Below are positions 22,655 to 47,143 of a stretch of 64,000 bases of DNA, piece after piece. The stretch is taken from IMG/VR virus record IMGVR_UViG_3300021962_000047, positions 32,001 through 96,000 of that record; one strand, given 5' to 3'. The notes below the pieces were generated by a model, which was not told the origin of the DNA, searched no databases, and saw only the letters and a program-made list of their open reading frames with translations. A program made the position numbers and the translations under genes. Source of the DNA: a virus. The stretch's first letter is position 1. Every line of letters begins with the position of its first letter.

Positions 22655-25600
22655 TTAAGAACAGTTAGAGTAGAACGTAATATTGTTAGGTGAACAACTT
22701 GTCAAAGTATATTGACTATAGTTAGTTGCTGGAGGGTCTCCAGGGTTAGATGGTGATTGTGCATAAATGTAGTTACCTTGGACATCTGCTGCGATTTCAC
22801 TATAGAAAATCGTTAATGAACACGGTGCAGGTGGGTCAACCGCACCGATTTCAACACGAACCACATCACCAACACATGCGGATATTGTAGTTGTAGTATT
22901 CGAACCACAAGGAACACCAGTTCCAAACGAATAAACCTGAACTCCATTAACTTTAATAACTCCAAGAGTTTTAATACAACAAGTAGAACCAACAATACAG
23001 CCTTGTTTAATATGTTGAACATTTATTGTACAACATTGAGTTGTTTGAGTTGGTGTAACAGTTCTGGTTGGTGTTGGAGTCCTTGTTGGAGTTCTCGTAA
23101 CTGTTTGAGTTGCAGTTTTAGTTGGCGTAGGAGTTGCAGTTCTCGTAGGTGTTGCAGTTCTCGTAGGTGTTGGAGTCGGTGTTGGTGTTGTAATAACACT
23201 CGTACATGGGTAAGATTCGGTACATGTAGCACAATCATCATAAGTAATACCACCAAATCCACCTGTAAATACAGACCAAGTTATTGGTACATCAAGTATT
23301 TTATTTAATGTGTAACAATTATTTGAAATTCCTCCTTGTTCTGAAACATACACAATTAGACCATTATTATTACTCACATACTCACAAATACTAGTATCTT
23401 GACTACCAAAGTAATATATTTCAAATTCACCTTCGGAACAACAATTGTCCGATAAACTAAAGTAACAATACTCAGGACTTGTTGGAGTCGGAGTTAATGT
23501 TGGTGTTTGAGTTGGTGTAGGTGTTGGTGTCGGACACGGAGCTACATCATTACAAGCTGAACAATCGACATATAATGTAGTCACTTTATACTCTGCGGGT
23601 TCTGGCGTTCCCACTAAGTCATAAATTGTGTAACAAATTCCGTCAATTATAACAACATACCCTTGTAATTCACTTCCATATGCCGTTGGAACATCAACAA
23701 ATTTCACAATTTCAGTTCTTCCATCACAACATTCAATCATTGTTAATTCCCATGTAGTGTATGCAACCGTTTCGGTTGGGGTATTAGTAGGTGTATTTGT
23801 TGCGGTTAATGTAGGTGTAGCTGTTGCGGTCAACGTAGGTGTTGATGTCAACGTAGGTGTGTTTGTCGATGTTAATGTTGGAGTTGAAGTCCTTGTTGGT
23901 GTATTTGTAGCTGTTAATGTTGGAGTATTTGTCGCGGTCAACGTAGGTGTTGCCGTTGCGGTTAGTGTTGGAGTCGAAGTCCTTGTTGGAGTATTTGTGG
24001 CAGTTAACGTAGGAGTTGAAGTCCTTGTTGGTGTATTTGTTGCAGTCAACGTAGGAGTTGAAGTCCTTGTTGGGGTATTTGTTGCGGTTAATGTTGGAGT
24101 ATTTGTCGCGGTTAAAGTTGGAGTATTTGTTGCGGTTAAAGTAGGAGTTGAAGTTCTTGTCGGAGTATTTGTTGCGGTTAAAGTAGGTGTTGAAGTTCTT
24201 GTCGGAGTATTTGTCGCGGTTAAAGTAGGTGTTGATGTTAATGTTGGAGTATTTGTTGCAGTCAACGTAGGTGTTGATGTTAATGTTTGGGTTGGTGTAG
24301 GAGTAACTGTTCTTGTTGCCGTTAACGTAGGAGTGTTTGTCGCTGTTAGTGTAGGTGTTGATGTTAATGTTTGAGTCGGTGTAGGAGTAACTGTTCTCGT
24401 TGCAGTTAATGTAGGTGTACTGGTTGATGTAAGTGTTTGTGTTGATGTAACTGTTTGAGTTTGTGTTGGAGTAACCGTTCTCGTTGCGGTTAATGTTGGA
24501 GTACTAGTTGAAGTCAACGTAGGTGTTGAAGTCAATGTAGGTGTGCTGGTAGATGTTTGTGTTGGAGTACTTGTTAAAGTCGGTGTGTTAGTTGCAGTTA
24601 ATGTTGGAGTAGATGTTAGTGTCTGAGTATTAGTAGGTGTAACCGTTCTGGTTGATGTTAATGTCGGTGTGTTAGTTGGTGTTTGAGTTGGCTGTGCAGT
24701 CAATGTAGGTGTCGCAGTTGAAGTCAATGTAGGTGTTGAAGTCAACGTAGGTGTACTTGTTGAAGTTAAAGTTGGAGTATTAGTTGCGGTTAATGTGGGA
24801 GTATTTGTTGATGTTAAAGTAGGTGTAGATGTTAATGTTTGAGTTAAAGTTGGCGTTTGTGTTGGAGTAGATGTAACTGTTTGTGTCGGTGTCGGAGTTG
24901 GACATGTAAATGTAGTACCCGCAACTGCATCACCATCTACATCAGTTACAATATTGATTTGTGTTGGGTCACTTATTCTTTGAATATATAGGCTTGGACC
25001 TCCGTATAATGAAATTAATTCACTATAAATGTAAGGTGTTAGATTACCATCTGAATATAATGTTTCACCTTCAATTACAGGGTGGTCATTATCATAAATT
25101 ACAATAGTTGATGGTGTACCATAACATAAATCATTTAAACTATTTGATATATAATAGTTTTCAGCATTTTGAATTTGAGTTGGTGTTGGTGTAGATGTTT
25201 GAGTGCTCGTAGGGGTTGGAGTATTTGTAGAACTCAATGTCGGAGTAGAAGTTAATGATTGAGTCGGTGTTGGTGTAACTGTTCTTGTTGAGGTTAATGT
25301 AGGAGTATTAGTTGCGGTTAAAGTAGGTGTACTAGTTAAAGTAGGTGTTGAGGTCGAAGTTAAAGTAGGTGTGTTAGTTGATGTTAATGTTGGCGTATTA
25401 GTTGAAGTTAATGTTGGCGTTTGACTCTGAGTTTGTGTATTAGTTGGAGTAACAGTTCTTGTTGATGTCAAAGTAGGTGTTGACGTACTTGTCAATGTTG
25501 GAGTACTGGTCGTTGTTGGCGTTGAAGTGCTCGTCTGAGTTGGAGTATTAGTAAGTGTTTGAGTTGGAGTTGCAGTTAATGTTTTAGTGGCTGTTACTGT

Positions 25601-26440
25601 TTGAGTATTTGTTGGTGTTAAAGTTAAAGTACTTGTTAAAGTAGGTGTTGAAGTACTTGTTAGTGTTGGCGTTTGAGTTAAAGTAGGAGTTGAAGTACTT
25701 GTTAATGTTGGAGTACTTGTTAATGTAGGTGTTGAAGTACTTGTTAGAGTTGGCGTTTGAGTTAAAGTAGGTGTTGACGTACTTGTCAATGTCGGAGTAC
25801 TTGTTAGAGTTGGTGTTGACGTACTTGTCAATGTTGGAGTACTCGTTAAGGTTTGAGTATTCGTTGGGGTTAAAGTGGGTGTTTGAGTTAAAGTAGGTGT
25901 TGAAGTACTTGTTAAAGTAGGAGTTGAAGTTAATGTAGGTGTAGATGTACTAGTTAAAGTTGGTGTGCTTGTTAATGTCGGTGTTGAAGTGCTTGTTAAT
26001 GTTGGTGTAGATGTACTTGTTTGAGTCGGAGTATTAGTCGGAGTATTAGTAGATGTTAATGTCGGTGTCGAAGTGCTTGTTAAAGTTGGTGTTGCGGTAC
26101 TCGTTTGTGTTGGAGTGTTTGACAAAGTCGGAGTACTCGTCAATGTAGGAGTTGACGTACTAGTTTGAGTAGGAGTATTTGTGAGTGTTTGAGTTAATGT
26201 TGGGGTGCTAGTTAATGTTGCAGTTAAAGTTGGTGTTGGTGGAATAATATGAATATATGTTTTATCATAATAAGGAACATAAATTTCATAAGTACCTGTA
26301 AAATGAGGCGCAATATAATTAAAAGGCATTGTAAGCGTACCTAAATCAGATGGGTCACCACCTTCATCAGACAAATACGTAACCTGAACTGTAAAACCAC
26401 TTAGGTTTTCACTTAAAAATCTAATACCTTCTCCCGCCAT
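22655..26440 (-). CDS. Thr/Pro-rich mucin-like putative virion protein with Cys-rich modules
   Basis: 1261 aa, mostly [14 protein letters not shown] and TATNTPT(L/R) repeats. Preceded by the TATTTAT motif. No signal peptide is apparent. Confidence 0.75.
23760..26240 (-). repeat. Degenerate 18/24-bp coding tandem repeats (Thr/Pro)
   Basis: Units such as gttaatgttggagtactt and gttaaagtaggtgttgaagtactt with heavy synonymous variation, interrupted by a globular module at about 24900-25175. Confidence 0.85.
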
Positions 26441-26502
26441 TTTTTATTTTATAATAAATATTACCTAATCTTATAATCCCATTTTATTTTTTAGTAATTT
26501 CT

Positions 26503-29500
26503 TTATATACAATAGAACCATTTATTATTTAAGTAGTTGTGTGTTACAGATAATTCTGAAGGTGTCAATACTCTATTCCACAATAATACCTCATATATAA
26601 ATCCACCGTAGTAATATCTGAATGATGATGTCCCTGTTCTATCAACACCAATATATAGTGTATCTATGGATGCATTTGTTGATGTACCAACATTTGATAA
26701 GAATGTTAATGATTCCTGAACTCCGTCAATATAGAATTTAAGCTTGTCAGCATTTGTAGATTGTGTACCATCAAATACCATAGTCCACATATGTGGGTTT
26801 AAATCGGCGATTTGGGATGTCTGAGCTAAACCATTTGCAGCTCCTACAACAAATGTACCACCACTTAATCTTAAGTTAGAATTGTTAGTGGATACGTTAC
26901 CGATACCAGATGTGATAAATTGTTGTGTGGTACCAGTATTTACCAATTTACCTAAAACAATTGCAGTAAACCCTGTGATAGCCGCAATAGATGTTAATGG
27001 GTTAACACTCAAGCCATCAGATGTCCCATCAAATTTAACAGCACTTAATCCACACTGTACATTGGTCCACCACGCAGGTCTGGTTGTGGCACCTCCGATT
27101 GGGTTGGCATTATGTGCACTTGCAGATGAGTCATACCATTGAGTAAAGGTATCACCACTCACAGGTGTTGGGTTAAAGTTAGTATCTAAACTTGCGTCAT
27201 AATAAATTTGTAGAGTTGGGTCTGACGGTACAACCGCCTGTGTTGCGGTTAATGTTAAAGTTGGTGTTGGTGTAAGTGTTTGAGTAATAGTAACCGTTTG
27301 TGTTAAAGTAGGTGTTGGAGTTGGAGTTAATCCGCCAAGTGTTTGTGTTGGTGGCAATGGTGTAGAAGTTATATCATTAGTCGGAGCCGGCGTAAATGTT
27401 AATGTTTGAGTTGGTGTTAAAGTTGGAGTTGAAGTACTTGTTAATGTCGGAGAACTTGTTAAAGTTGGGGTTGAAGTACTTGTTAATGTCGGAGAACTTG
27501 TTAAAGTTGGGGTTGAAGTACTTGTTAATGTTGGTGTAGGTGTCGGTGTAGTCACAATAAATGGACTAAAATCTACAATAACCGGACACTCACATTCTGA
27601 GGTATCCACACTAATCACACCAAATGATTGAACACATTCACCAGGTTGTAATACACCACTTAAATTAAATGTATGTACGTGGTCATTAAATGACATAGTT
27701 TCTGAACCATAGAACACAGTTCCCATATCACCACGAGCAACACCTGAAATAACATAATCACATAGAGCATTGGCATTACTTGTAAATCCACTATCGTTAT
27801 ATAACTTTATTGAGAAGTTAGAACATCCTCCTAATTCAACCTGAAGATATTGTGTAGTTACCGGACAACTTGGAGTATTAGTTAACGTTGGTGTATTTGT
27901 TAAGGTTGGTGTACTGGTTGAAGTTAAAGTAGGTGTTGAAGTTAAAGTAGGTGTTGACGTACTAGTTAAAGTCGGAGTAGAAGTTAAAGTAGGTGTTGAT
28001 GTGCTCGTTAGTGTTGGTGTCTGAGTTAAAGTAGGTGTTGAAGTACTTGTTAATGTAGGAGTGTTAGTTAATGTAGGTGTATTGGTTGATGTTAAAGTAG
28101 GTGTTGACGTACTAGTTAAAGTAGGTGTAGACGTACTTGTTAGTGTCGGCGTTTGAGTTAATGTCGGAGTATTTGTAGGTGTTGGTGTAGGAGTTGGACA
28201 AATTTGGTCCACACCACAAACCGATTCACCATCAACATTATTAACTATATTAATTGTTGAACCACCAACCTTCTTAATGTAGAACGGAGTTCCACCAGCA
28301 ATACTCTCTAAATCAACATACGGATATGGTGTTAATAAACTATCTTGATATAATGTTTCACCCTCAATAACGGGATGGTCATTATCATAAATTAAAATAG
28401 TTGGATTTTCTCCATAACATAACGAATCTAAACTATCTGAAATATAATAGAAATCAGCATTTTGTACTTCAGTCGGTGTAGGTGTTGATGTTAATGTTGG
28501 CGTGTTCGTTGCAGTCAACGTCGGAGTTTGGGTCAACGTAGGAGTTGAAGTACTTGTTAAGGTTGGTGTACTTGTAAGTGTTGGAGTATTAGTTGACGTT
28601 AATGTCGGAGTTTGAGTCAACGTTGGTGTCGAAGTACTTGTTAATGTCGGAGTTTGAGTCAGAGTCGGAGTTGAAGTACTTGTTAAAGTTGGGGTACTTG
28701 TTAATGTCGGTGTATTAGTTGAAGTTAAAGTCGGAGTACTTGTCAACGTAGGAGTTGATGTACTTGTCAATGTTGGAGTTTGTGTTAAAGTAGGTGTAGA
28801 AGTACTTGTCAACGTAGGAGTACTTGTCAGTGTTGGTGTGTTAGTTGAAGTTAATGTAGGAGTACTGGTTAGGGTTGGGGTATTAGTTGCGGTTAAAGTA
28901 GGGCTACTTGTTAGGGTAGGCGTGGGTGTACTTGTTAAGGTAGGACTCGGTGTAGGTGTTTGAGTTGGTATATTAAAGATATACCTGAAAGTATAAACAT
29001 AATTGTAAATTGTACTACCTGAATTAACGATACTAACATTACTAATACCACTGGTGTAATTCAATAAAGAATAATTTGTGGTTGCACTTAATTGAGTCCC
29101 ACCTGATAATGAACCCGCACCGAGTTCGATTGTAGGTTCAAACACCAATGACGAACCATTTTGTAATCCAAGAGTATTGTTAAAATTAATAACAACTGTA
29201 TTATCTACAGTTCCATCCATGGTTGCCGAATATGATGCAAATACAGAACCCGCGGTGTATGTTCCAACAATATCAATAGTTCTAGTATTGATTAATGTTG
29301 GAGTTGGTGTTGGCGTTCTTCTTGGAGTTTCTGTTGGTCTAACAAAAGGAGTTACACCTTTATTTGGTCTACAACACGTATCACTATCTGCGAACGATTC
29401 AATTATATTAACATATAATACATTCCTAACAGGAACAATATATTCACCTCTTTCATTAACAATTTTAAATTCACCAATGTATCTACCAACTTTAGATGAT

Positions 29501-29733
29501 GTTTTTTTGTTGAATTGATAATAAACAGAATAACCTGAACCATCTTCATTGATAGTTACACCCGCAGGAACATTAGCTAATCTATAAATTCCTGTATCAA
29601 CATCTTTAAGTGAGAATGTAACTGTAGACGCTGACAAATATTGGTCGAGCTGATGATACCCATTTCTCGATTCATTTATTACCTCAACCATCAATTTAGG
29701 TAATGTACTATTCTGTCTTATAAAAAACTCCAT
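26503..29733 (-). CDS. Fibre-like protein: BppU-like N-terminus, Thr/Pro repeats and LamG/concanavalin-like C-terminus
   Basis: N-terminus MEFFIRQNSTLP; TSTPTL tracts; C-terminal YYDAS...QWYDSS...VKFDG...FYIDG...GFIYEVLLWNRVLT, a LamG-like pattern. Confidence 0.75.
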   Translation of the reverse strand: MEFFIRQNSTLPKLMVEVINESRNGYHQLDQYLSASTVTFSLKDVDTGIYRLANVPAGVTINEDGSGYSVYYQFNKKTSSKVGRYIGEFKIVNERGEYIVPVRNVLYVNIIESFADSDTCCRPNKGVTPFVRPTETPRRTPTPTPTLINTRTIDIVGTYTAGSVFASYSATMDGTVDNTVVINFNNTLGLQNGSSLVFEPTIELGAGSLSGGTQLSATTNYSLLNYTSGISNVSIVNSGSTIYNYVYTFRYIFNIPTQTPTPSPTLTSTPTPTLTSSPTLTATNTPTLTSTPTLTSTNTPTLTSTPTLTSTSTPTLTQTPTLTSTSTPTLTSTPTLTSTNTPTLTSTPTLTSTSTPTLTQTPTLTSTSTPTLTQTPTLTSTNTPTLTSTPTLTSTSTPTLTQTPTLTATNTPTLTSTPTPTEVQNADFYYISDSLDSLCYGENPTILIYDNDHPVIEGETLYQDSLLTPYPYVDLESIAGGTPFYIKKVGGSTINIVNNVDGESVCGVDQICPTPTPTPTNTPTLTQTPTLTSTSTPTLTSTSTPTLTSTNTPTLTNTPTLTSTSTPTLTQTPTLTSTSTPTLTSTPTLTSTSTPTLTSTPTLTSTSTPTLTNTPTLTNTPSCPVTTQYLQVELGGCSNFSIKLYNDSGFTSNANALCDYVISGVARGDMGTVFYGSETMSFNDHVHTFNLSGVLQPGECVQSFGVISVDTSECECPVIVDFSPFIVTTPTPTPTLTSTSTPTLTSSPTLTSTSTPTLTSSPTLTSTSTPTLTPTQTLTFTPAPTNDITSTPLPPTQTLGGLTPTPTPTLTQTVTITQTLTPTPTLTLTATQAVVPSDPTLQIYYDASLDTNFNPTPVSGDTFTQWYDSSASAHNANPIGGATTRPAWWTNVQCGLSAVKFDGTSDGLSVNPLTSIAAITGFTAIVLGKLVNTGTTQQFITSGIGNVSTNNSNLRLSGGTFVVGAANGLAQTSQIADLNPHMWTMVFDGTQSTNADKLKFYIDGVQESLTFLSNVGTSTNASIDTLYIGVDRTGTSSFRYYYGGFIYEVLLWNRVLTPSELSVTHNYLNNKWFYCI
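27240..28970 (-). repeat. Thr/Pro coding repeat tracts
   Basis: Same repeat units as 23760-26240, in three tracts separated by globular modules. Confidence 0.8.
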
Positions 29734-29746
29734 CTACTTACTATAA

Positions 29747-32533
29747 TTATAAACAAGGGTTATCATTTATACAATCAGCACAATCTGTATATACTGGTGA
29801 ATCAATATAAAGTACATTACTACCAGGTGATATAGGACCAATTGGTCCAAAAAGTACCGTTATATAATAACACTTACCTTCATATTGGATTATATCACCA
29901 ACATTCAATATTGACGTACTATTAATTGAATCTAGTAATGAGTCACCATCATCACAACAACTTAATGCCGTCATATCTCCATACCCATAAACACATTCAT
30001 TTTCCGATGTACATTCAACACACGTTTCATAAACGTTAATTACAGTTAAACCTAATGGAGGTCCAATTGCTGGTGTTGGAAGAGTAATAATCTCAAAACA
30101 TTGGACAAACCCATCATGTTCTATAGTAACAATATCACCAAGATTTAAAGTTGTAAGGGAACTAATAATCTCAATAGGTTCTTCCCATCCATCTATACAA
30201 CACGATTTTAATGTTCCAACCTCATAATTGTAATATACCGGTTGTGAAAGTGTTGGTGTAGGTACTGGTGGTGTATATGTTGGTGTTGGCACCGGAGGTG
30301 TCTGTGTCGGAACTAACGGTGTTGACGTAACATCATTTGTCGGTTGAGGTGTAAATGACAATGTAGGTGTCATCGTAGCCGTCAACGTAGGTGTCATTGT
30401 CAACGTCGGTGTTTGAGTTTGAGTTGGATATAAGATTACATTAACATCAACCTCACAATTTTCATCCGTTACATTAAAGTTGAAATCACAATTTGCATCA
30501 ATAATATTAAATCCAAAATCACATTCGATATCATTAATTGCATAATCAAATCTACAAGTGACTGTATCAACATTGAAGTCGAAATAACATTGTGACAATA
30601 TCTCCAAACAGTTTGGACACCAATAATCGAATAAATTAAATCGGTCCTTCAATACCCTGAAGTTGTGTTGGATTTGAGATGAATCCAATGGTTCAACATA
30701 CATTCTGAATTGAGATATACCCCCCATAAAGGTTCCACCAAAATTTTGTTCCATCAAAATATCGGTTGTCAATCCAGATAATGAGGTACCTGACAAAGTA
30801 TTGTTCGGCATCAATTCAGGGTCCTGAATATATGGACCATAACGGTCTTCACAATTTTGGAAGATTAAACTCTCACGAAGACCTTGAGTACCACCACCCC
30901 ATGAAATGTTAAACGGAACTCCGATTTGTTTTTCACGTTGGGTGTTTAACTCACGAGGAATAATTTCTTCAAAATCTTCGATAACCATAAACAGGTAACC
31001 GTTAACATATAAACGAAGAACACCTCTTCTATCTTCAACTTGTCTTAACCATTTTCTGTTAAGTTCAATAACTTCTTCAGGTAATTCTTTTTTACCACCC
31101 TCGTGTGTTTGAGGGGGTTGAATAAGGTTTACCGTGGCACCATAGGTTTCAGAAGAATATACGTATTCGCGTATGTCTCCCAATCCCCCTTTATTTAATA
31201 GGTCACATCCGTCGTACCACCTATATCGGTCAAAGACAGCTGTTAACATTACCCATCTTTCTTTTGTTCTTTCGGCTTCAGAAACAGGATAACCACAAAC
31301 ATCATAGATACCACGAGATGAACATATCTCATTAATTGTATATCCCGAACAATATGTCAACCCAGTTGTTTCACATGTTCCCGTTGTGACGCAATCACCC
31401 GTTAACTTAATGTATTTAACACATAATCGTGGGTTTTTAGGGTCACCACTCAAACGAATAGACATTGCATTTGAGAATACATCCATCGCTGGGTCAACAG
31501 GTGGTTCAGGAACCTCTGTATTGTATGAACAAAACGGACCAATATTGTGTTGAACAGTTGTTGCGGTTTGAGGGTAAACCAACAAACAATGAGATAATGT
31601 ATTTGCGGTGTCGGCACATCCGCATGTTTTAATACAATCAGTTAAACCTGATGTAACTCTTTGGTATTCCCATTGTGTTCCACCCGACGTATCAAAATCA
31701 AAATCACATTTGAAATTCTCAGGAGTTTGAGTTAAACCAGAGGCTGGATGATAAAATTTATTTTCAGCACGAGTACCAAAGAAAAAGAATGTTCCCGCAT
31801 TTTCAGGGTAAACTGTGTTTAGATATGTCTGGTGTTGTTCACGGATATGGTATTCATCTACCTGACGTGGTTTGATAACCGTCTCCATTGTCCACCCCTT
31901 ATTAACCCTTTCAGGGAAAACTTCATAATCGTAACCATGTAATTTGTAGAAACCCTGAAAAAATCCACCATATAATTCTTGGTAATAACCAACTTGGCTA
32001 TCCTCCTTACTCATTATATTATAAATGGTTTCTTTTGGGTTACCTGAAAATCTAACATTTGGGGGGTTGGTGTAATCATACACCTGTCTCATCTTAAATC
32101 TTCGGTCGTAATAATGGGGGTTATAAGTCATAAACTCATCAATACCCATCGTATAATATAGTGTTTGACCTGTCATGTATTGATACATTCCTGTATCAAT
32201 CATTGTGAGACCCGCATCACATAATCCAGTATATCCTTTATAACAATTTAAATCTTCATTGTTTGGATTATAATAGTTTTTAGATGTGGCAGTATTTCCT
32301 GAATTAAAATTACCCCAATAAAGATAATCTTTTGGGTTTGACGCAGCGGAATTTAAGTCAATATTGATTGGTAAAATGTTACCATTCGTTTCGGCAATTA
32401 GATAATTTGAAAATACTACTTCCTCGTCGTAATTTTTTTCATCCGACGCTAAAGTTAAGTCAAAGTATTCACTATTATCTAACTTTATATCAAATCTATT
32501 AAAGTTAAAATTGTTAATGTTTTGAGTTGCCAT
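29747..32533 (-). CDS. Putative virion protein: LamG-like region, Thr/Pro linker and two Cys-rich C-terminal modules
   Basis: LRLYVNG, NISWGGG and GGISQFRMY (LamG-like); PTQTQTPTL linker; two CC...C...YxxCxxC...C modules. Confidence 0.65.
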   Translation of the reverse strand: MATQNINNFNFNRFDIKLDNSEYFDLTLASDEKNYDEEVVFSNYLIAETNGNILPINIDLNSAASNPKDYLYWGNFNSGNTATSKNYYNPNNEDLNCYKGYTGLCDAGLTMIDTGMYQYMTGQTLYYTMGIDEFMTYNPHYYDRRFKMRQVYDYTNPPNVRFSGNPKETIYNIMSKEDSQVGYYQELYGGFFQGFYKLHGYDYEVFPERVNKGWTMETVIKPRQVDEYHIREQHQTYLNTVYPENAGTFFFFGTRAENKFYHPASGLTQTPENFKCDFDFDTSGGTQWEYQRVTSGLTDCIKTCGCADTANTLSHCLLVYPQTATTVQHNIGPFCSYNTEVPEPPVDPAMDVFSNAMSIRLSGDPKNPRLCVKYIKLTGDCVTTGTCETTGLTYCSGYTINEICSSRGIYDVCGYPVSEAERTKERWVMLTAVFDRYRWYDGCDLLNKGGLGDIREYVYSSETYGATVNLIQPPQTHEGGKKELPEEVIELNRKWLRQVEDRRGVLRLYVNGYLFMVIEDFEEIIPRELNTQREKQIGVPFNISWGGGTQGLRESLIFQNCEDRYGPYIQDPELMPNNTLSGTSLSGLTTDILMEQNFGGTFMGGISQFRMYVEPLDSSQIQHNFRVLKDRFNLFDYWCPNCLEILSQCYFDFNVDTVTCRFDYAINDIECDFGFNIIDANCDFNFNVTDENCEVDVNVILYPTQTQTPTLTMTPTLTATMTPTLSFTPQPTNDVTSTPLVPTQTPPVPTPTYTPPVPTPTLSQPVYYNYEVGTLKSCCIDGWEEPIEIISSLTTLNLGDIVTIEHDGFVQCFEIITLPTPAIGPPLGLTVINVYETCVECTSENECVYGYGDMTALSCCDDGDSLLDSINSTSILNVGDIIQYEGKCYYITVLFGPIGPISPGSNVLYIDSPVYTDCADCINDNPCL

Positions 32534-32547
32534 TCAGGTTTTTAACT

Positions 32548-32573
32548 ATAAATACTTTCTTTGTTATATTTAT
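32548..32573. promoter_or_regulatory. Back-to-back divergent TATTTATA putative late promoters
   Basis: ATAAATA at 32548-32554 serves the minus-strand gene starting at 32533; TATTTAT at 32567-32573 serves the plus-strand gene at 32582. Confidence 0.65.
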
Positions 32574-32581
32574 ATGAAAAA

Positions 32582-35016: not shown

Positions 35017-35068
35017 AACCCTTTTTTTATTAGTTTTTTTTGGTTATACTTAAGTTAAAACTTATAGT

Positions 35069-37568: not shown

Positions 37569-37569
37569 T

Positions 37570-37956
37570 ATGGAAAATATTAGCCCTGTACTACCTGAAG
37601 GTATTAAAAATTACCTTATTGATATTGACGGAACAATTACCGATGATATCCCAAATGAAGAACCATGGAGAATGCTCGACTCATTACCATATGAAGGGTG
37701 TGTTGACATTATTAATCAATGGTACCAAGAAGGACACATAATTACATTTTTTACATCAAGAACTGAAGAACATAGAGCGGTTACTGATACGTGGTTACAA
37801 AAAAATGGATTTCAGTTCCATCATCTTTTAATGAATAAACCTCGTGGCGGTAACTATCATTGGATTGATAACCATATTGTGAGAGCAACTCGATATAATG
37901 GCAAATGGACACCAATGACTACCGTAACCACGGACATACAAGTTTTTGGAGAATGA
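37570..37956 (+). CDS. HAD-family phosphatase (capsule-biosynthesis-phosphatase-like)
   Basis: IDIDGTI, FFTSR, LMNKP and WIDN. The start was moved to the ATG just after the dut stop. Confidence 0.75.
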   Translation: MENISPVLPEGIKNYLIDIDGTITDDIPNEEPWRMLDSLPYEGCVDIINQWYQEGHIITFFTSRTEEHRAVTDTWLQKNGFQFHHLLMNKPRGGNYHWIDNHIVRATRYNGKWTPMTTVTTDIQVFGE

Positions 37957-39332: not shown

Positions 39333-39939
39333 TATGCAAAATTATAAAATACTTGGAGTAGGACACCCTAGAACAGGAACGGGTTATACATCAAAATTAT
39401 TATCTAGTTTTGGATTCTCTGTTGGTCATGAAACATTGCAAAATGATGGGATTGTGGCATGGCAAGTTATGTTATCATCTAAAGATTTTAAAAATGGAAT
39501 ACCGTGGGTATATCCAAAAATTGATTACGACAAAATTAATTTTGAAACTATAATATATAACACTCGAAATCCACTAAACAGTATACCATCTATTGTTTAT
39601 ACTGAAAATCCATCTTTGAGTGATAGAAAAACCATTGTGGATTTTTCAGAGGCATCAAACCCAGTCGAGATGGCAATAATTTCAATTTGTACTTTTGATA
39701 CTTTAATCAAAAATAAGTATAAAAACCTTATTCAATATCGTGTTGAAGACGAACAAGAAAAATTGTTCAATTTACTGTCAAAAAAATATGAAATAAATCC
39801 CAATTATAATCTACCACCATCGAGTTATAATTCAAGAAAAAATAGAATAGGAAAAATCGATTATTCGGTAGTTAGACCAAAATTTCAAGAAATGATTAAT
39901 AATTATTGTTTGGAATATGGATACCCAAAAATCTTTTAA
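39325..39939 (+). CDS. Sulfotransferase-like protein
   Basis: PAPS-binding-like GHPRTGTGY, plus GHE, RNPL..I.S and YRVED. Confidence 0.65.
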   Translation: MNNMQNYKILGVGHPRTGTGYTSKLLSSFGFSVGHETLQNDGIVAWQVMLSSKDFKNGIPWVYPKIDYDKINFETIIYNTRNPLNSIPSIVYTENPSLSDRKTIVDFSEASNPVEMAIISICTFDTLIKNKYKNLIQYRVEDEQEKLFNLLSKKYEINPNYNLPPSSYNSRKNRIGKIDYSVVRPKFQEMINNYCLEYGYPKIF

Positions 39940-39941
39940 TT

Positions 39942-40583
39942 ATGTTAGTTTCACACAGATATAAATTTATTTATTTAAAACCAAGAAAAGTTGCTGGGAC
40001 ATCTGTAGAATCATTTTTGGAAAGGTATTGTGTTAGCCCAGAATTAGAATCAACATATAAAATTAATGAAGATACCAATTTTAAATCAGACGAGTACGGT
40101 ATTATTGGTGGAAGAATGAAAGGTAAAGTTAGCGCAAAATGGTTAAACCATAAAAGTGTTCCTGAAATGAAAAGAGATTTGCCAAGTAATATATGGAATG
40201 AATATACAAAAATTTGTAATATTCGTAATCCATATGATATGACAGTTTCTTGGTTTCATTATAACCGACCTGGAAATGCGGTGAATAAAGAAATCTTTAA
40301 AAATTTTATTTTAAAAACAAATAATTTAACCACTCTCAGGTTTAATAAAAATATATGGTCAGATGGTGGCAAATTTAATTTTGAATATATTAAATTTGAA
40401 AATCTTGAGGAGGATTTAGATAATATAATGACTAAACTAAATTTACCAAAATACAACTTTGACCTACCCAAATATAAGATTAGTCGTAGAGGTGAATGGC
40501 CACAATACTACGATACCCGTTCAAAAGACATCGTAACATCAATGTTTGAGGATGAAATTAACTTCTTTAATTACAAATTTTAA
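39942..40583 (+). CDS. Sulfotransferase family 2 protein
   Basis: KFIYLKPRKVAGTS (5'-PSB), IRNPYDMTVSWF (3'-PB), KFENLEED and EINFFNYKF. Confidence 0.8.
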   Translation: MLVSHRYKFIYLKPRKVAGTSVESFLERYCVSPELESTYKINEDTNFKSDEYGIIGGRMKGKVSAKWLNHKSVPEMKRDLPSNIWNEYTKICNIRNPYDMTVSWFHYNRPGNAVNKEIFKNFILKTNNLTTLRFNKNIWSDGGKFNFEYIKFENLEEDLDNIMTKLNLPKYNFDLPKYKISRRGEWPQYYDTRSKDIVTSMFEDEINFFNYKF

Positions 40584-40658
40584 GAAGTTAAAACATATAC
40601 ATTAAATCTTTAATATTCTTAAGGTTTAAACTATTATTACTATGATAATTTAAGCTTT

Positions 40659-41822
40659 ATGAAAAAACTAGGTGTAATCGGTATCGGCAAATTAGGTTTA
40701 TCTTTTGCATTGTTAGCCGAAAATAAAGGATATATAGTATGGGGTTCTGATGTCGATAAAGAATATATAAATTCTTTAAAAAATAAGACATTTAAAACTA
40801 ATGAACCACATATTACCGAGTATTTAAAAAACTCAAAAAATTTTAATCCCACAATAGAGAATATAGATGTAATTGGTAATTGTGATTTAATCTTCACATT
40901 TGTACCAACTAATTCATTACCTAACGGTGAATATGACCACAAATACATTGAAGAGGTTGTGGATGCCTTCGAGGCAATGCATTACACGGGTTGTGACATA
41001 TTAGGTAAAACTTTAGTAATCGGATGTACAACCAGTCCTGGTTATGTTGATACAATTCAAGAAAGATTAGAAGAATATGGAGTAAATGTTTGTTATAACC
41101 CTGAATTCATCGCTCAAGGAGATATAATAAATGGATTAGTCAATTCTGATTTTGTCTTAATCGGAACAAACACCCCCAACGAAATTAAGGATTTAACCGA
41201 GGTTTATTACACAATAATGAACGATGAACCCGTCTTTAAGATAATGTCAAATACCGCAGCGGAGATTACAAAAATTGCAGTTAATTGTTATCTAACAACA
41301 AAAATATCTTTTGCCAACATGATTGGTGAAATTTGTCACAATACAGGTATCGGTGATGAGGTTGATACAGTTTTATCCGCCATCGGTACTGATAAGAGAA
41401 TCGGCAATAGATACCTCAAATATGGGTTTGGATTTGGTGGTCCGTGTTTACCTCGTGATAATAGAGCCCTCGGAGCTCACGCGGAAAAAGTTGGACTTGA
41501 AGTCAATCTACCGTTATCTGTAGATAAGTTTAACTTCGAACATCACAAGTATTTGGTAAATAAATTTGTTACCGAATATCCCGACAGAAACACAACATTT
41601 GTTTTTGACTCTATTAGTTATAAAAAAGGAGTCGATATATTAGAAGATTCACAACAACTAACACTTCTATTAACACTCCTATCTGAAGGGTATAATTGTG
41701 TGGTCTTAGAAATGGATAGTATCATAGAAAAGATTGAGACACCTCTTAAAAATGTGTGGGGAGATAGAATCACTATGTTACCATTAAACTCTGAAGTTGA
41801 AGGTGTTAAAATAAATTTATGA
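40659..41822 (+). CDS. ugd: UDP-glucose/GDP-mannose dehydrogenase family protein
   Basis: GIGKLG, FVPT, YNPEFIAQG, AEITKIAVN and GFGGPCLPRD (catalytic Cys). Confidence 0.9.
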   Translation: MKKLGVIGIGKLGLSFALLAENKGYIVWGSDVDKEYINSLKNKTFKTNEPHITEYLKNSKNFNPTIENIDVIGNCDLIFTFVPTNSLPNGEYDHKYIEEVVDAFEAMHYTGCDILGKTLVIGCTTSPGYVDTIQERLEEYGVNVCYNPEFIAQGDIINGLVNSDFVLIGTNTPNEIKDLTEVYYTIMNDEPVFKIMSNTAAEITKIAVNCYLTTKISFANMIGEICHNTGIGDEVDTVLSAIGTDKRIGNRYLKYGFGFGGPCLPRDNRALGAHAEKVGLEVNLPLSVDKFNFEHHKYLVNKFVTEYPDRNTTFVFDSISYKKGVDILEDSQQLTLLLTLLSEGYNCVVLEMDSIIEKIETPLKNVWGDRITMLPLNSEVEGVKINL

Positions 41823-42904
41823 AAAAAGTCATAGTACTTGGTGGGGGTGGATTCATTGGTGGTCACCTAGCGAAAAGATTAAAAGATGAAGGACATGAAG
41901 TCACAATCTGTGATATCAAACCTCATGACTATTGGAATCACGAAGACATCTGTGATGAATTTATTTTTGGGGATTTAAGACACCCCGGAGTTGTTGCGGA
42001 TGTTATTGATGAAAACATAGATGAGGTATATCAATTAGCCGCGGATATGGGTGGTGCTGCGTACATCTTTACTGGTGAAAATGATGCTGATGTAATGCAT
42101 AATTCAGCAATGATAAACCTAAATGTTGCTAAAGAATGTGTTAAGAAAAAAGTTAAAAAAGTATTTTATTCTTCTTCGGCCTGTATGTATCCTGAATACA
42201 ATCAGATGGACCCTGATAATCCAAATTGTGAAGAATCGTCAGCTTATCCTGCAAACCCCGATTCAGAATACGGATGGGAAAAATTATTCTCAGAGAGAAT
42301 GTTTTTATCCTTCTACCGTAATTACGGTTTGGATGTAAGAATTGCACGATTTCATAACATCTTCGGTCCTATGGGTACTTGGAAGGGTGGAAAGGAAAAA
42401 GCACCTGCAGCTATGTGTAGAAAAGTCGCCGAATCTGAATCTGAAATTGAGGTGTGGGGTGATGGTCAACAAACCAGGTCATTCCTTTATATTGACGAAT
42501 GTGTGGATGCCGTTCTAAAATTTATGGATTCAGATTTTACAGGTCCTGTTAATATTGGTTCCGAAGAAATGGTAACAATAAATCAGTTAGCTCAGATGTG
42601 TATTGATATTTCAAAAAAAGACATTAAAATTAATAATATAAATGGACAAGAATTTATTGAAAAATATGGATTTAAATGTCCGATTGGAGTCAGGGGTAGA
42701 AACTCTGACAATAAACTTTACAAAGATAAAATAGGTTGGGTAGTATCTCAGCCGCTAATTGTTGGTATGGAAAAAACATATGAATGGATAGAAAATCAAG
42801 TAAACGAAGAAAAGAAAACCTACATTTATGAAAGTCCTGATGGAGGTAAGACAGTTTACAGAAGAGAGTTTGGACAACCTCACGAAACTAGAGAATTGAT
42901 TTAA
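41819..42904 (+). CDS. NAD-dependent epimerase, GDP-mannose 3,5-epimerase-like
   Basis: GGGGFIG, LAADMGG, SSACMYPE, YGWEK, EKAPAAMCRKV and VRGRNSDN. Confidence 0.85.
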   Translation: MKKVIVLGGGGFIGGHLAKRLKDEGHEVTICDIKPHDYWNHEDICDEFIFGDLRHPGVVADVIDENIDEVYQLAADMGGAAYIFTGENDADVMHNSAMINLNVAKECVKKKVKKVFYSSSACMYPEYNQMDPDNPNCEESSAYPANPDSEYGWEKLFSERMFLSFYRNYGLDVRIARFHNIFGPMGTWKGGKEKAPAAMCRKVAESESEIEVWGDGQQTRSFLYIDECVDAVLKFMDSDFTGPVNIGSEEMVTINQLAQMCIDISKKDIKINNINGQEFIEKYGFKCPIGVRGRNSDNKLYKDKIGWVVSQPLIVGMEKTYEWIENQVNEEKKTYIYESPDGGKTVYRREFGQPHETRELI

Positions 42905-42926
42905 AATAAACAATAACAAAATATAC

Positions 42927-43652
42927 ATGGCAAATACAAGAAGAAAACCTGAGTCAACATCAACACCACTACCGAAAATGACTCGGAAAGACCTAATTCA
43001 AAGTGTTATCGGTAAAACACCAAGAAAGAAATTCTTATCTGAAGGACAAAGACACTACTTTGAATTATTAGAAAATAAAGAAATAACAATTTGTACAGGA
43101 CCTGCAGGGGTTGGTAAATCATACATCGCAATGAATGCGGCGGTACAATTATTATTAGACCCAAATAACTCATATGAAAAAATTATAATTGTTAGACCTG
43201 CGGTTGAAGCTGAAGAAAAACTCGGAGCATTACCAGGAAACGTTGAAGAGAAATTGGACCCTTATATTTTCCCATCATATTATCTTTTAAATAAAATAAT
43301 AGGTAAAGATGCTAGAGAAAAATTAAAAGAATATGATATTATTGAAGTTTTCGCATTGGCATACATGAGAGGTATGAATATCGATAATTCAATTCTAATT
43401 TTTGAAGAAGCACAAAACTGTACACCTAAACAAATGAAACTTTTATTAACTCGAATTGGTTTTAATAGTAAGTTTTTTATCTCAGGAGACCTTGAGCAAA
43501 CTGACCGTTACAAAGATAAAACACATTCAGGTTTATGGGATGCGATTGAACGATTAAAAGATTTAGATAATATCGGTATTTACCAATTTGATAATAAAGA
43601 TATTATTAGAAATCCAATCATAACTAAAATCTTAGATAGATACGAAGAATGA
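42927..43652 (+). CDS. phoH: PhoH-family ATPase
   Basis: GPAGVGKS, RPAVE, LGALPG, AYMRG, EEAQN and SGDLEQTD. Confidence 0.93.
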   Translation: MANTRRKPESTSTPLPKMTRKDLIQSVIGKTPRKKFLSEGQRHYFELLENKEITICTGPAGVGKSYIAMNAAVQLLLDPNNSYEKIIIVRPAVEAEEKLGALPGNVEEKLDPYIFPSYYLLNKIIGKDAREKLKEYDIIEVFALAYMRGMNIDNSILIFEEAQNCTPKQMKLLLTRIGFNSKFFISGDLEQTDRYKDKTHSGLWDAIERLKDLDNIGIYQFDNKDIIRNPIITKILDRYEE

Positions 43653-44260
43653 AAATAGCATTTGATGTAAATGGAGTATTAAGAGACACTTTTGGTAAGG
43701 CCGAACAGGTTTACCAAAAGTTTTATATTGATGACTACATAAAAGAAGAAGGTGAAGATGATTTTGAATTTAAATTAAATTTACCAATGACTTCTTATAC
43801 CCTTTCGGACCATTTTATTTTCCCAAAGGAAGAAGATTTATATGATTTTCTATATGTAGAATACCCAATGCAGATTTTTGGTCATGCTCCATCACCAAGT
43901 GGTAATACATTTAACGTACTAAACGAAATATATGAAGAATTAAGAGATGACCACGAGATAATTGTTGTGTCTGATGAAATACAAAAATCAAAACCGGCAA
44001 CATTATTTTTCTTATCAAAGTATGGATGTTTAATTGAGAAGATACTTTTTTATTCTAAAATAACTGAAAATAATATGTGGTCAGAATGTGACATTTTAAT
44101 AACCGCTAATCCAAATTTATTAATGGAATATCCGGTGGATAAAATTTTAGTGAAGTTTGAAACCGAATATAATCAAGGTATTGATTGTGATTATACCATC
44201 AAAAATCTCGAAGAGTTTAAATCTCTTTATGAACAACTTAAATTAAAAGAAAATGATTAA
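43649..44260 (+). CDS. 5'(3')-deoxyribonucleotidase-like HAD protein (degenerate motif I)
   Basis: IAFDVNGVLRD; C-terminal FETEYN. Confidence 0.55.
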   Translation: MKIAFDVNGVLRDTFGKAEQVYQKFYIDDYIKEEGEDDFEFKLNLPMTSYTLSDHFIFPKEEDLYDFLYVEYPMQIFGHAPSPSGNTFNVLNEIYEELRDDHEIIVVSDEIQKSKPATLFFLSKYGCLIEKILFYSKITENNMWSECDILITANPNLLMEYPVDKILVKFETEYNQGIDCDYTIKNLEEFKSLYEQLKLKEND

Positions 44261-44519: not shown

Positions 44520-44521
44520 AA

Positions 44522-45586: not shown

Positions 45587-45587
45587 A

Positions 45588-46391
45588 ATGGAAAAGTTAG
45601 ACGTATCAGTAATTTTACCAGTAGAATCATCAAAACATAAAGATTTTACTGAATACTTAACAAAGGCAATAATGTCTATAAACAATCAATCAGTTCCTGT
45701 AAACGAATTAGTATTGGTTCACTCAGGTGAAGAATCTTTACAGACCATTGTTGATGGTTTTGATTACAGTGGATTAACTATTAATATCGTAAAAAATGAT
45801 GGGAAAACTGATTTTCCATCTCAAATTAATTTAGGAGTTAAAAACGCAAAATCAAAATGGATTTCTATTTTGGAATTTGATGATGAATACGCTTCTATTT
45901 GGTTTAAGAACGTTAAAGAATATATGGAATCTTATCCTGATTTTGATGGGTTCTTACCATTAGTTGTTGATGTAGACAGTACAGGTATGTTTGTTGGTTT
46001 TACAAACGAAGCAACATTCGCAGCAAGTATGAATATGGAAATTGGTATTCTTACTAATGAACTATTATTAAACTACCAAAACTTCCAAACCAGTGGATTG
46101 GTTGTTAAAAAATCAATTTTTGAAGATTTTGGAGGATTTAAATCATCATTTAAGTTAACTTTTGTTTATGAATTCTTATTGAGAATGACGTACAACGCGG
46201 CTAAATTAATGACAATACCAAAGATTGGTTATAAACATATAAACCTAAGGGAGGGTTCAATTTTTTGGAACTATAAAAACGGCTCAAACCGAATTTCTGA
46301 AGATGAAGTAAGTTTTTGGATTGAATCTGCAAAGAAAGAACATTTCTTTGCCGATGATAGGGGCATAAAATATGAACCAACAAATGTTTAA
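45588..46391 (+). CDS. Glycosyltransferase family 2
   Basis: VSVILPV, INLGV, ILEFDD and FGGF. Confidence 0.8.
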   Translation: MEKLDVSVILPVESSKHKDFTEYLTKAIMSINNQSVPVNELVLVHSGEESLQTIVDGFDYSGLTINIVKNDGKTDFPSQINLGVKNAKSKWISILEFDDEYASIWFKNVKEYMESYPDFDGFLPLVVDVDSTGMFVGFTNEATFAASMNMEIGILTNELLLNYQNFQTSGLVVKKSIFEDFGGFKSSFKLTFVYEFLLRMTYNAAKLMTIPKIGYKHINLREGSIFWNYKNGSNRISEDEVSFWIESAKKEHFFADDRGIKYEPTNV

Positions 46392-47143
46392 TGTTTTTAT
46401 CTGAATTATCGGGTACATCTGCAGAATCAATACTAAAGAAAAGAGGTAGAAAACCCAAAAACACTAACTATTTCGATGTAAGAGAAGAGACGGCAGTCAG
46501 GATGTTCTTGACTGCCACTACTTACAACGAGCGTAACCAGATATACAATGATTATCTGAGAGCGCCAGTAGATAAGATGATTGAATCAATCATACGACGT
46601 TATAAACTATACCGTAAAGATATGGATTTTATTGAAATCCATAATGATACTCATTCATTTTTGGTTACAAAAATAGAAAAGTTTAAACCAGATAAAAATA
46701 AAAAAGCATATTCTTATTTTGGTACAATTTGTAAAAACTATTTGATGGGTCAAATCATCAAAGACCAAAAAGACCAAAATAGAAAAATATCATACGAAGA
46801 CATTTCAGCATCGTTAGAAAATAGACCTGATTTAATTTATCACTTAGAACATGATGTTATCGAACCTTCACAGGTTATTGAAGAGTTTTTAAAGAAGTTA
46901 AAAGAATATGTTTTAGATGAGAGTATGAGTCAAAACGAAGTTAAACTTGGTTATGCTCTTATCGAATTATTTGAAAATTATGATAATATTTTTATTGGAA
47001 ATGATAACAATAAATTTAATAAAAATATTATTTTACTTTCATTACGAGAAATGACAAACCTATCAACTAAAGAAATTAGAACATCTATGAAAAAATATCG
47101 TAAGTTCTATTATGAGTTGATGAAAACATTAAATGAACTTTAA
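46391..47143 (+). CDS. Late-transcription sigma factor (T4 gp55-like)
   Basis: Region-2-like IEKFKPDKNKKAYSYFGTICKNYL; N-terminal NYF; last gene of the non-late operon. Confidence 0.65.
   Translation: MFLSELSGTSAESILKKRGRKPKNTNYFDVREETAVRMFLTATTYNERNQIYNDYLRAPVDKMIESIIRRYKLYRKDMDFIEIHNDTHSFLVTKIEKFKPDKNKKAYSYFGTICKNYLMGQIIKDQKDQNRKISYEDISASLENRPDLIYHLEHDVIEPSQVIEEFLKKLKEYVLDESMSQNEVKLGYALIELFENYDNIFIGNDNNKFNKNIILLSLREMTNLSTKEIRTSMKKYRKFYYELMKTLNEL

Follow-up and report, generated by a model that had tools for sequence, protein, structure and literature searches.

What does a phage build with four glycosyltransferases of its own, and on what does it place the product? The question is raised by a stretch of 64,000 nucleotides (the window), bases 32001-96000 of the linear 105,971-bp IMG/VR record IMGVR_UViG_3300021962_000047, in which three adjacent genes for fibre proteins with long Thr/Pro tracts (TP1, TP2 and TP3) lie 2.5-13 kb from four glycosyltransferase (GT) genes, GT-A to GT-D, set in a block of sugar genes. 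An earlier interpretation made from the letters alone (the sequence-only reading) had proposed that the phage attaches an acidic, possibly sulfated glycan to these mucin-like fibres. Here we report that the system, judged by its gene content, consists of four conserved GTs and a hypervariable island for sugar supply and decoration. We suggest, tentatively and somewhat short of an even chance, that a cytoplasmic, phage-encoded pathway glycosylating virion proteins is its best reading; that the Thr/Pro tracts specifically are glycosylated is a narrower and more doubtful proposal.

Relatives were collected with a profile of GT-B, which found 226 related loci in IMG/VR; 80 of these were fetched with 10-kb flanks, and all counts of loci out of 80 refer to this set. 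Almost wherever a flank reaches, the block is conserved: the N-terminal domain of GT-B is present in all 80 loci, the exonuclease and dUTPase genes in 77 each, GT-A in 73, an open reading frame (ORF) containing DUF3721 in 69 and the N-terminal domain of TP3 in 66, the last at 41-68% identity, always beside the GT-A block and about 2.5 kb from GT-A itself. GT-A is kept at 62-74% identity with about 140 invariant residues, and its family comprises at least 7997 metagenomic clusters at 90% identity, the contigs that carry them reaching about 305 kb. GT-C and GT-D are present and adjacent in all five near-complete relatives (44-70% identity), each of which carries all four GTs. Such strong conservation of four soluble GTs argues for a conserved cytoplasmic acceptor.

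The stretch from the GT-B N-terminal domain to the PhoH gene, by contrast with this core, is hypervariable. Its length across the 80 loci varies between 2.3 kb and more than 10 kb, and its 770 ORFs fall into 240 protein clusters. Glycan genes dominate a Pfam tally of 150 cluster representatives (epimerases/dehydratases 10, GT2 10, FkbM methyltransferases 9, GDP-mannose dehydratase 7, RmlD 7, DegT aminotransferases 5, GT11 4), which also includes GNAT acetyltransferases, UDP-GlcNAc 2-epimerase, nucleoside diphosphate (NDP)-sugar dehydrogenases and Sulfotransfer_3, a sulfotransferase family different from those considered below. From the N-terminal sequences of its ORFs, the close relative L004 appears to carry NeuB/NeuA-like, GDP-mannose dehydratase and fucose-synthase genes in its island. 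The C-terminal GT2 domain of GT-B is itself swappable, being present in 28 of the 80 loci. A decoration island this variable suggests that its product is under diversifying selection, and a glycan exposed at a surface would be expected to combine a constant core with changing outer decoration in just this way.

In the strain sequenced here, the island holds two well-supported sugar-nucleotide enzymes. The first matches TIGR03026 at 215.7 bits, above the cut-off, and occurs in 18 of the 80 loci; it had been called UDP-glucose dehydrogenase-like, and while its identity as an NDP-sugar dehydrogenase stands, its substrate is not assignable from sequence. The second was correctly named as a GDP-mannose 3,5-epimerase, since its match to PDB 2c59 (Arabidopsis GME, 7.3e-95) is unambiguous; it occurs in 13 of the 80 loci. 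Independent DNA contigs from 2025 studies cover the stretch from GT-B to the dehydrogenase with about 98.7% identity and include both candidate sulfotransferases, so the cassette is not an assembly chimera. At estuary or lagoon sites the phage attains an assembly depth of about 15-35x.

Sulfation, if it occurs at all, is peculiar to this strain and lies outside the conserved system as we delimit it. Two sulfotransferases had been proposed, and homologues of both candidates were found in none of the 80 related loci. The 225-aa candidate barely passes the Pfam cut-off (23.3 bits against 22, for both Sulfotransfer_1 and Sulfotransfer_2), aligns full-length to PF03567, and carries the motifs PRKVAGTS and RNPYDMTVS, candidates for the 5'-phosphosulfate-binding (5'-PSB) and 3'-phosphate-binding (3'-PB) motifs. 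Its 204-aa neighbour is a candidate by motifs only: GHPRTGT (within G-x-G-H-P-R-T-G-T) and R-x-P-x5-S (RNPLNSIPS) are invariant across 33 homologues and resemble the two loops that bind 3'-phosphoadenosine-5'-phosphosulfate. Its family has 47 metagenomic homologues, in none of which Pfam recognises a domain and of which one is fused to a GNAT domain, and searches for a sulfotransferase relationship by Pfam, NCBIfam, phmmer against the PDB, a 33-sequence profile against the PDB and hhalign against the neighbouring protein were all negative.

The pathway appears to be soluble and cytoplasmic throughout, since no cluster protein of the window has a transmembrane segment and none of the loci encodes a polytopic protein. 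A hydropathy scan of 1693 ORFs from the 80 loci (about 1.5 Mb) found no ORF with four or more transmembrane-like segments except shadow frames of Thr/Pro tracts; within the region of the window, the frame opposite the tracts, which codes for (VGV)n, is the sole 'membrane-like' ORF. With membrane components missing, and with them the enzymes that prepare DNA bases (see below), the virion is the simplest acceptor.

The enzymes themselves belong to generic families, and the first count of four GT genes with five GT domains (GT-B has two) is confirmed. GT-A was modelled by AlphaFold2 (AF2) with a mean predicted local distance difference test score (pLDDT) of 89.8, and Foldseek matches the model to GlgM, MshA, BshA and PglA at E values of 1e-12 to 1e-14; these are generic GT4 folds that do not discriminate between acceptors, and NCBIfam gives GT-A no equivalog match. 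The C-terminal domain of GT-B is closest in the PDB to the glucuronic acid (GlcA)-transferase domain of K4 chondroitin synthase (2.4e-24), followed by GalT1 of the Fap1 pathway (5hea, 1.5e-16). The sole clear PDB sequence match of GT-C is AmGGT (8xsg, 7.9e-7), and its top NCBIfam match, SdgA, is weak and far below threshold. Homologues of AmGGT in Actinobacillus work in the cytoplasm, where they lengthen the glucose chains of peptide-linked glycans (PMC12159676), a kinship that would favour a protein-borne product here.

Homologues of GT-A also occur well outside the lineage. Two adjacent genes (28% identity) lie in Escherichia phage Mt1B1_P17 (NC_052662, 45046-48190); in Phapecoctavirus the homologues belong to a cluster of four GTs with the endolysin and DNA polymerase I genes close by, which is uninformative as to function. 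Another (37% identity) lies in a 735-kb uncultured megaphage (LR756501, 540613-541806).

The candidate acceptors are the three fibre proteins, which total 3265 aa as first described. Thr/Pro tracts cover 68% of TP1, 41% of TP2 and 7% of TP3 and are built of units of the type (TPTLTSTS)n; TP1 is 35% Thr and 12% Pro and contains 104 TPT triplets. The tract DNA consists of degenerate tandem repeats (periods 42/84/126 nt, 60-82% matches) in which all four Thr codons are used, which marks them as old repeats kept at the protein level rather than products of recent slippage. A Cys-rich module, CC..C..CxxC..C, occurs in seven copies in three genes, those of TP1 matching phrog_15511 at 4.6e-41. The N-terminal 64 aa of TP1 are conserved in a 1117-aa protein of G051, a 297-kb relative that is 99% complete, and the C-terminus of TP2 matches Laminin_G_3 (PF13385) at E 1.6e-8, above the cut-off. 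The LamG-like and Cys-rich domains reported earlier were thus recovered by Pfam and sequence analysis; a Pfam scan of the isolated globular beads of TP1-TP3 found nothing beyond the LamG domain. Two further Thr/Pro genes lie in the same record outside the window.

The N-terminal domain of TP2 had been described as BppU-like. Pfam gives no match of the TP proteins to the BppU N-terminal domain (PF10651) at E <=1; what the AF2 model of this adaptor family shows is an Ig-like sandwich (pLDDT 79) that resembles phage baseplate proteins weakly. The top Foldseek match is the baseplate of phage NF5 (E 7.7e-4, TM-score 0.49), and baseplate or tail-tip chains of NF5, DT57C and T5 are among the top matches at TM-scores of 0.44-0.49, mixed with antibody domains. 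The stand-alone 117-aa copy of this domain is present in 37 of the 80 related loci. In relatives that lack TP1 and TP2 (L004, for example), two short Ig-like genes stand alone. The arrangement suggests that the fibres were built by fusion of stalks and heads onto an Ig-like adaptor.

How would such proteins be glycosylated? A hydropathy scan found no signal peptide and no N-terminal hydrophobic or transmembrane segment in TP1-TP3, as had been noted, and the sites of general Bacteroidota O-glycosylation, D-(S/T)-(A/I/L/M/T/V), number none in TP1 and four each in TP2 and TP3, all in globular parts and none within a tract. The host system modifies exported proteins bearing such sites, a description that TP1-TP3 do not fit. 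The missing signal peptides and the tracts free of the host motif would both be in keeping with a route supplied by the phage in the cytoplasm.

We therefore set out the virion-glycosylation model as follows. In the cytoplasm, before or during assembly, GT-A, the N-terminal domain of GT-B, GT-C and GT-D would equip structural proteins with a conserved core glycan, and the island between GT-B and PhoH would supply strain-specific outer sugars and decorations. In this strain these may include a uronic acid (from the dehydrogenase), GDP-L-galactose or GDP-L-gulose (from the epimerase), the product of the extra GT2 domain and possibly sulfate. By analogy with mucins, Pro/Thr (PT)-linkers and serine-rich-repeat adhesins, the likeliest acceptors would be the long tracts of TP1-TP3, which may be viewed as extended stalks that join a small, conserved anchor at the N-terminus to heads of Cys-rich or lectin-like type (Table 1).

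A second candidate acceptor is the motif [ST][GA]xT, dispersed in globular virion proteins. In the globular part of TP3 (residues 78-586) it occurs 10 times against 1.4 expected from composition-preserving shuffles (z 7.9); elsewhere the counts are 8 against 1.0 in a 360-aa ORF, 6 against 0.7 in the ORF at 51314-52825 and 8 against 2.9 in the sheath protein. In TP3, the 360-aa ORF and the ORF at 51314-52825 the enrichment is 5-8 standard deviations (SD) above shuffles, all of it outside Thr/Pro tracts. The enriched ORFs include those at 5153-6235 and 7025-8752 of the whole record (G000). The conserved GTs may use the motif as a sequon, and an acceptor of this kind would explain why the GTs persist where tracts are missing.

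Table 1. Features of the window discussed in the text (positions are those of the window).
Feature	Position	Strand	Description
Tail sheath	9494-12673		contractile-tail phage gene
Superoxide dismutase fusion	16345-17895		516 aa
PolB	19382-22174	-	family-B DNA polymerase
Ig-like stand-alone 'adaptor'	22261..22614	-	117 aa; paralogue (42% identity) of TP2 N-terminal domain (29356-29733); between TP1 and PolB
TP1	22655..26440	-	1261 aa; 60-aa conserved N-terminal anchor; Thr/Pro tracts of 365 + 395 residues around a 78-aa globular bead; two 6-Cys modules; Cys-rich 122-aa C-terminal head
TP2	26503..29733	-	1076 aa; Ig-like 126-aa N-terminal adaptor; four Thr/Pro tracts (446 residues total) between small globular beads; C-terminal LamG/ConA-like lectin-type domain
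TP3	29747..32533	-	928 aa; lineage-conserved globular domain of 699 aa; a single Thr/Pro tract (69 residues); two 6-Cys modules
Small conserved ORFs	32561..35016	+	253 aa (DUF3721-containing), then 156, 98, 131 and 188 aa
GT-A	35069..36277	+	soluble glycosyltransferase of GT-B fold (GT4-like); phrog_7162 at 4e-47
PolB-type 3'-5' exonuclease, dUTPase, small HAD-like protein	36274..37956	+	PF10108 7e-14, PF00692 1e-22, PF24694 2.5e-8; outside glycan synthesis
GT-B	37905..39332	+	two-domain soluble GT; PF13712 2e-30 (N-terminal, lineage core) + PF00535 5e-31 (C-terminal GT2)
204-aa protein; 225-aa marginal sulfotransferase	39325..40583	+	39325-39939 and 39906-40583; first part of variable cassette
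NDP-sugar 6-dehydrogenase; GDP-mannose 3,5-epimerase	40659..42904	+	second part of variable cassette
PhoH-like ATPase; conserved 203-aa protein	42927..44260	+	PhoH PF02562 1e-64, distal border of variable cassette; 203-aa protein at 43649-44260, no family match
GT-C	44522-45586	+	354 aa; GT-B fold; weak GT1 match
GT-D	45588-46391	+	267 aa; GT2; PF00535 6e-8; adjoins GT-C
Three large ORFs	47556-52825		no family match; possibly structural

Some features of the layout differ from the first description. The two gene sets had been called co-oriented, and the sugar genes in fact run on the plus strand, divergent from the minus-strand TP genes. Nor do they form a dedicated operon, as a PolB-type exonuclease, dUTPase and PhoH lie inside the GT block. 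Of the two 'HAD phosphatases' one gave a weak match and the other none, and both are conserved core genes outside the variable cassette. The label 'late genes' is not supported for TP1-TP3, which run directly into the PolB gene on the same strand. Extending the system to position 47143 takes in a conserved 250-aa gene without glycan-related features; this gene follows GT-D and is itself followed by a 124-aa ORF and then by the three large ORFs of Table 1. With these corrections the sequence-only reading was largely right in what it observed, and its interpretation is plausible.

If the ATG at 32582 is the start of the DUF3721 ORF, the divergent start codons of TP3 and this ORF are about 48 bp apart (32534-32581), so at least one of the two promoters must lie inside coding sequence. 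A scan for sigma-70 promoters and terminators over 21.9-36 kb gave no excess over shuffles (66 matches against 57 ± 8), sigma-70 being moreover the wrong model for Bacteroidota. In two estuary RNA libraries, contigs of 170-437 nt with 93-97% likeness map to TP3, GT-A, the dehydrogenase and GT-C/D; being contigs that may represent DNA carry-over, they were rejected as proof of transcription or timing.

Do the fibres and the GTs belong together? The pattern ACNCCNACNNNNACN (TPTxT) has 38-383 matches in every related record of at least 140 kb, against no more than 21 for a reversed control. Three loci of G051 together encode seven Thr/Pro proteins, the one of 2499 aa among them. In a blind sample of 45 viral records with Thr/Pro tracts, 11 carry the GT-B N-domain family, for which only 226 loci were found in all of IMG/VR, and many of the remaining fragments bear the CheckV signature of the same lineage (about 20% at 60 kb). 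The sequence-only reading had staked itself on the two gene sets occurring together among relatives, and they do; the association lies within one lineage, which makes it weak evidence. As an indication of functional coupling, lineage-wide co-occurrence was rejected, both traits being simply inherited together.

Dense TPTxT tracts (42-112 matches) were also seen in complete viral genomes outside the lineage (among them the 60.8-kb provirus G062, G073 of 166 kb and G085 of 223 kb) and in fragments of some giant-virus metagenome-assembled genomes (MAGs). Thr/Pro stalks are a recurrent device of environmental viruses. A literature search for Thr/Pro repeats combined with phage GTs found nothing specific.

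Several points weigh against virion glycosylation, and above all against the tracts as its sites. A glycan on these proteins is a prediction from gene content. That GTs and Thr/Pro tracts occur together could be mere co-inheritance of traits shared by one lineage and carries little weight. In 21 of 57 relatives the fibre locus has no Thr/Pro tract and the GTs are kept, and several GT-bearing fragments of 90-130 kb have no tract at all, each of these representing only 30-40% of a genome. Among unrelated complete phages with dense Thr/Pro tracts, two of five have no GT1 or GT2 gene, so tracts can exist as plain linkers. The GT genes have neighbours from DNA metabolism (exonuclease, dUTPase, PhoH) and run divergently from the fibre genes; none of the GTs has a specific polypeptide O-glycosyltransferase signature, all fold and sequence matches being to generic GT2 or GT4. 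Sulfation, finally, comes down to one marginal Pfam match and one motif-only candidate. The original proposal of an acidic, possibly sulfated glycan on mucin-like fibres therefore survives in part: co-occurrence holds and the DNA and envelope alternatives are weakened, but co-occurrence is lineage-bound, sulfation is not conserved, and glycosylation of the tracts is a conjecture.

One alternative is that the GTs and their cassette remodel a glycan of the host envelope (capsule, lipopolysaccharide (LPS)/O-antigen or S-layer glycan) during infection, possibly as a block to superinfection or a means of keeping progeny off debris, and that the tracts are unmodified extended spacers. By sequence, the relatives of GT-B and GT-D are indeed polysaccharide GTs (K4 chondroitin synthase, EpsD/EpsE, TuaG, WcaA), and GTs of the PF13712 family are known in lipooligosaccharide (LOS) outer-core loci of Acinetobacter (PMC4172580). 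We nevertheless consider this alternative unlikely. The 80 loci contain no initiating phosphoglycosyl transferase, flippase, polymerase or ABC permease, and so none of the membrane proteins of a Wzx/Wzy-, ABC- or synthase-type pathway or of GtrA/GtrB/GtrC; capsule-type synthases such as K4 chondroitin polymerase (K4CP) are peripheral and lack transmembrane segments, however, so that the missing membrane proteins weaken the alternative and are not decisive. Moreover, four GTs held at 44-80% identity in a lineage reaching down to 39% average amino acid identity (AAI) imply one constant acceptor, whereas envelope glycans are strain-variable. The members are also apparently lytic jumbo phages rather than seroconverting temperate ones, yet two related records are flagged 'provirus' by IMG/VR.

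A further alternative, which we think about as improbable, is that the GTs act elsewhere in the cytoplasm, on a small molecule, host protein or storage glycan, or that virion glycans occur only at dispersed [ST][GA]xT motifs, with the tracts serving as bare, semi-rigid stalks that space swappable adhesin heads. In fold, GT-A comes closest to GT4 enzymes that act on small molecules or alpha-glucans (GlgM, MshA, BshA), and the enrichment of the motif outside the tracts, the relatives that keep their GTs at loci where the tract is missing and the phages with tracts yet no GTs would all suit it. A hypervariable decoration island is hard to reconcile with an intracellular metabolite, however, and the variant that relies on [ST][GA]xT is still virion glycosylation and so overlaps with the explanation we prefer.

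Hypermodification of phage DNA with mono- or oligosaccharides against restriction, as in the glucosyl-hydroxymethylcytosine (hmC) of T-even phages, the arabinosyl-5-hydroxycytosine (5hoC) of RB69 and DLP3 and clusters of methyltransferase (MT), TET and GT genes, is very improbable, because the known base-preparing enzymes are missing from the near-complete relatives. Known clusters of this kind (T4 alpha/beta-GT; MT-TET-GT, Pyle 2024; arabinosyl-5hoC, PMC13326640) likewise place GTs, sometimes with NDP-sugar genes, near DNA-metabolism genes, as GT-A and GT-B adjoin the exonuclease and dUTPase in the conserved block, and LPS- or teichoic-acid-like phage GTs put diverse glycans on DNA, some from clusters with their own NDP-sugar genes (bioRxiv 10.1101/2023.12.21.572611, PMC13326640). 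All five near-complete relatives encode a ThyA-family protein, but it is canonical (about 320 bits, with LPPCH and GDTHLY intact and PFNIASY bearing Asn rather than the Asp of dCMP hydroxymethylases, in G051, G055 and G046), and these five genomes contain neither ThyX (PF02511) nor a C5-cytosine methylase (PF00145; the control search gave a match). A search of the same genomes for TET/JBP (PF12851) found no match and was uninformative, its control being silent as well. The nonulosonic-acid, fucose, O-methyl, N-acetyl and sulfate genes and the 240 cassette clusters far exceed any known DNA glycan, and the cassette is far richer than those of the known clusters; the normal assembly of these genomes from Illumina data in at least 10 metagenome studies is a weak point in the same direction.

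Virion glycosylation by the phage itself thus remains the reading to compare with known systems. The conserved genes and their families, the variable island and the missing membrane-pathway and DNA-base-preparing genes are what we observe; from them we infer a virion protein as acceptor and, more loosely, the tracts as its sites, the addition of sulfate and a role in shielding, adhesion or antigenic variation. To our knowledge, mycobacteriophages are the only phages for which virion glycosylation by phage-encoded enzymes has been demonstrated to date. There O-glycosylation of virion proteins is a measured precedent (Freeman et al. 2023 Cell Host Microbe, as cited in PMC12582341 and PMC12619734). 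As summarized in those citing papers, soluble phage GTs encoded near structural genes place O-glycans on virion proteins in the cytoplasm and form a glycan shield, much as we propose here; the mycobacteriophage acceptors are short C-terminal extensions of capsid or tail-tube subunits, established by measurement, whereas our candidate acceptors are fibre tracts hundreds of residues long, proposed from genes. The present system also differs in having four core GTs together with a hypervariable NDP-sugar and decoration island, and a predicted Gram-negative (Bacteroidota) host.

The closest bacterial analogy is, in our view, the glycosylation of serine-rich-repeat adhesins of Gram-positive bacteria (GtfA/GtfB, Gtf3, dGT1/GalT1), together with SdgA/SdgB. 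There, soluble GT4 and GT2 enzymes from neighbouring genes attach O-glycans, in the cytoplasm, to long low-complexity repeats of Ser/Thr type. The likeness extends to the GalT1 match of the GT-B C-terminal domain, the match of GT-A to the SdgB fold (Foldseek rank 39) and the weak SdgA match of GT-C. Here, however, a GtfA/GtfB orthologue and an accessory Sec system are both absent (the hydropathy scan gave no membrane proteins), the matches are generic GT2/GT4 ones, and the repeats are Thr/Pro rather than Ser-rich or Ser-Asp.

Among viruses of eukaryotes, clade-specific glycan clusters of the Megavirinae decorate fibrils (PMC9614988, PMC10117803). Giant viruses and chlorovirus Vp54 offer viral NDP-sugar pathways and GTs working without host membrane machinery, clusters that vary between clades, a conserved core with variable outer sugars, and glycans on fibrils or capsids, all of which recall the arrangement proposed here; the enzymes and acceptors are unrelated, and no Thr/Pro tandem-repeat acceptor is known to have been described in these viruses.

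To which phages does this system belong? CheckV puts the completeness of the record at 34%, and the whole record is collinear with 120.9-225.5 kb of G051 (median 67% aa identity), so it represents about one third of a jumbo phage genome of about 300 kb. Related records are 270-321 kb long, one of them with terminal repeats, and come from estuary, lagoon, marine and freshwater metagenomes of at least 10 studies. The window has a GC content of about 33% and no tRNA genes, and encodes, besides the sheath and PolB, an SNF2 helicase, an Fe/Mn superoxide dismutase (Fe/Mn-SOD) fusion, dUTPase and PhoH. The moraphages, of which 25 genomes are published, are aquatic jumbo phages of about 200 kb up to about 307 kb with predicted Bacteroidota hosts; they have PolB, sheath, PhoH, dUTPase and a sigma factor, DnaK/DnaJ in some members, variable genomic islands, and four core GT orthogroups whose target was left open, modification of the host serotype being one of the roles proposed (PMC12619734), in line with the envelope alternative above. 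Our lineage resembles them in size, aquatic sources, PolB, sheath, PhoH and dUTPase, and its four core GTs agree with the four moraphage orthogroups; full-length DnaK (HSP70, about 850 bits) occurs in three of the five near-complete relatives (G055, 256493-258274; G022, 268472-270250; G046, 159503-161278). On these shared features, rather than on a tree, the record very probably belongs to the moraphages and so to a Bacteroidota host. PMC12619734 differs from the present account in making no mention of Thr/Pro tracts, glycan-island content or sulfotransferases.

No cultured relative was found: a tblastn search with the 6-Cys module region and the GT-B N-terminal domain gave no match in 50,697 isolated phage genomes, and the best PolB matches among isolated phages, in Salinibacter and Nostoc phages, reach only about 25% identity. 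The dismutase ORF of the window contains complete Fe/Mn superoxide dismutase N- and C-terminal domains (1.8e-22 and 1.4e-37) in residues 43-232, with the remaining approximately 280 residues free of matches; its neighbours are the SNF2 helicase and a head-tail adaptor-like gene.

A bolder form of the virion-glycosylation reading, which we regard as doubtful, is that this globally abundant lineage wears a 'glycocalyx' of hair-like fibres, their mucin-type Thr/Pro stalks bearing a core glycan whose outer sugars are swapped between strains via the island. The stalks would reach about 850 tract residues in a single protein here, and a relative has a protein of 2499 aa; the outer sugars could include uronic acid, L-galactose or L-gulose, fucose, nonulosonic acid, amino sugars, O-methyl and N-acetyl groups and sulfate. 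Such a coat, if real, would do for a virus what O-antigen variation does for bacteria, and no earlier glycoprotein system of mucin-like and possibly sulfated type would be known from a bacterial virus.

What would be new in such a system is that Thr/Pro stalks of mucin-like type, four core GTs and a variable island reminiscent of O-antigen loci come together in an abundant lineage infecting Gram-negative aquatic bacteria; the main value of the proposal is as a concrete hypothesis, directly testable by heterologous co-expression without growing the host. Should the virion prove to be the acceptor, virion glycosylation would be extended, with a different architecture, from mycobacteriophages to a very abundant aquatic lineage, the core GTs of the moraphages would gain a function and the variable islands described for them an explanation. 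It would also suggest that aquatic phage particles are under selection for surface-glycan diversity, whether from grazers, from host lectins or nucleases, or through adhesion to particles and polysaccharides.

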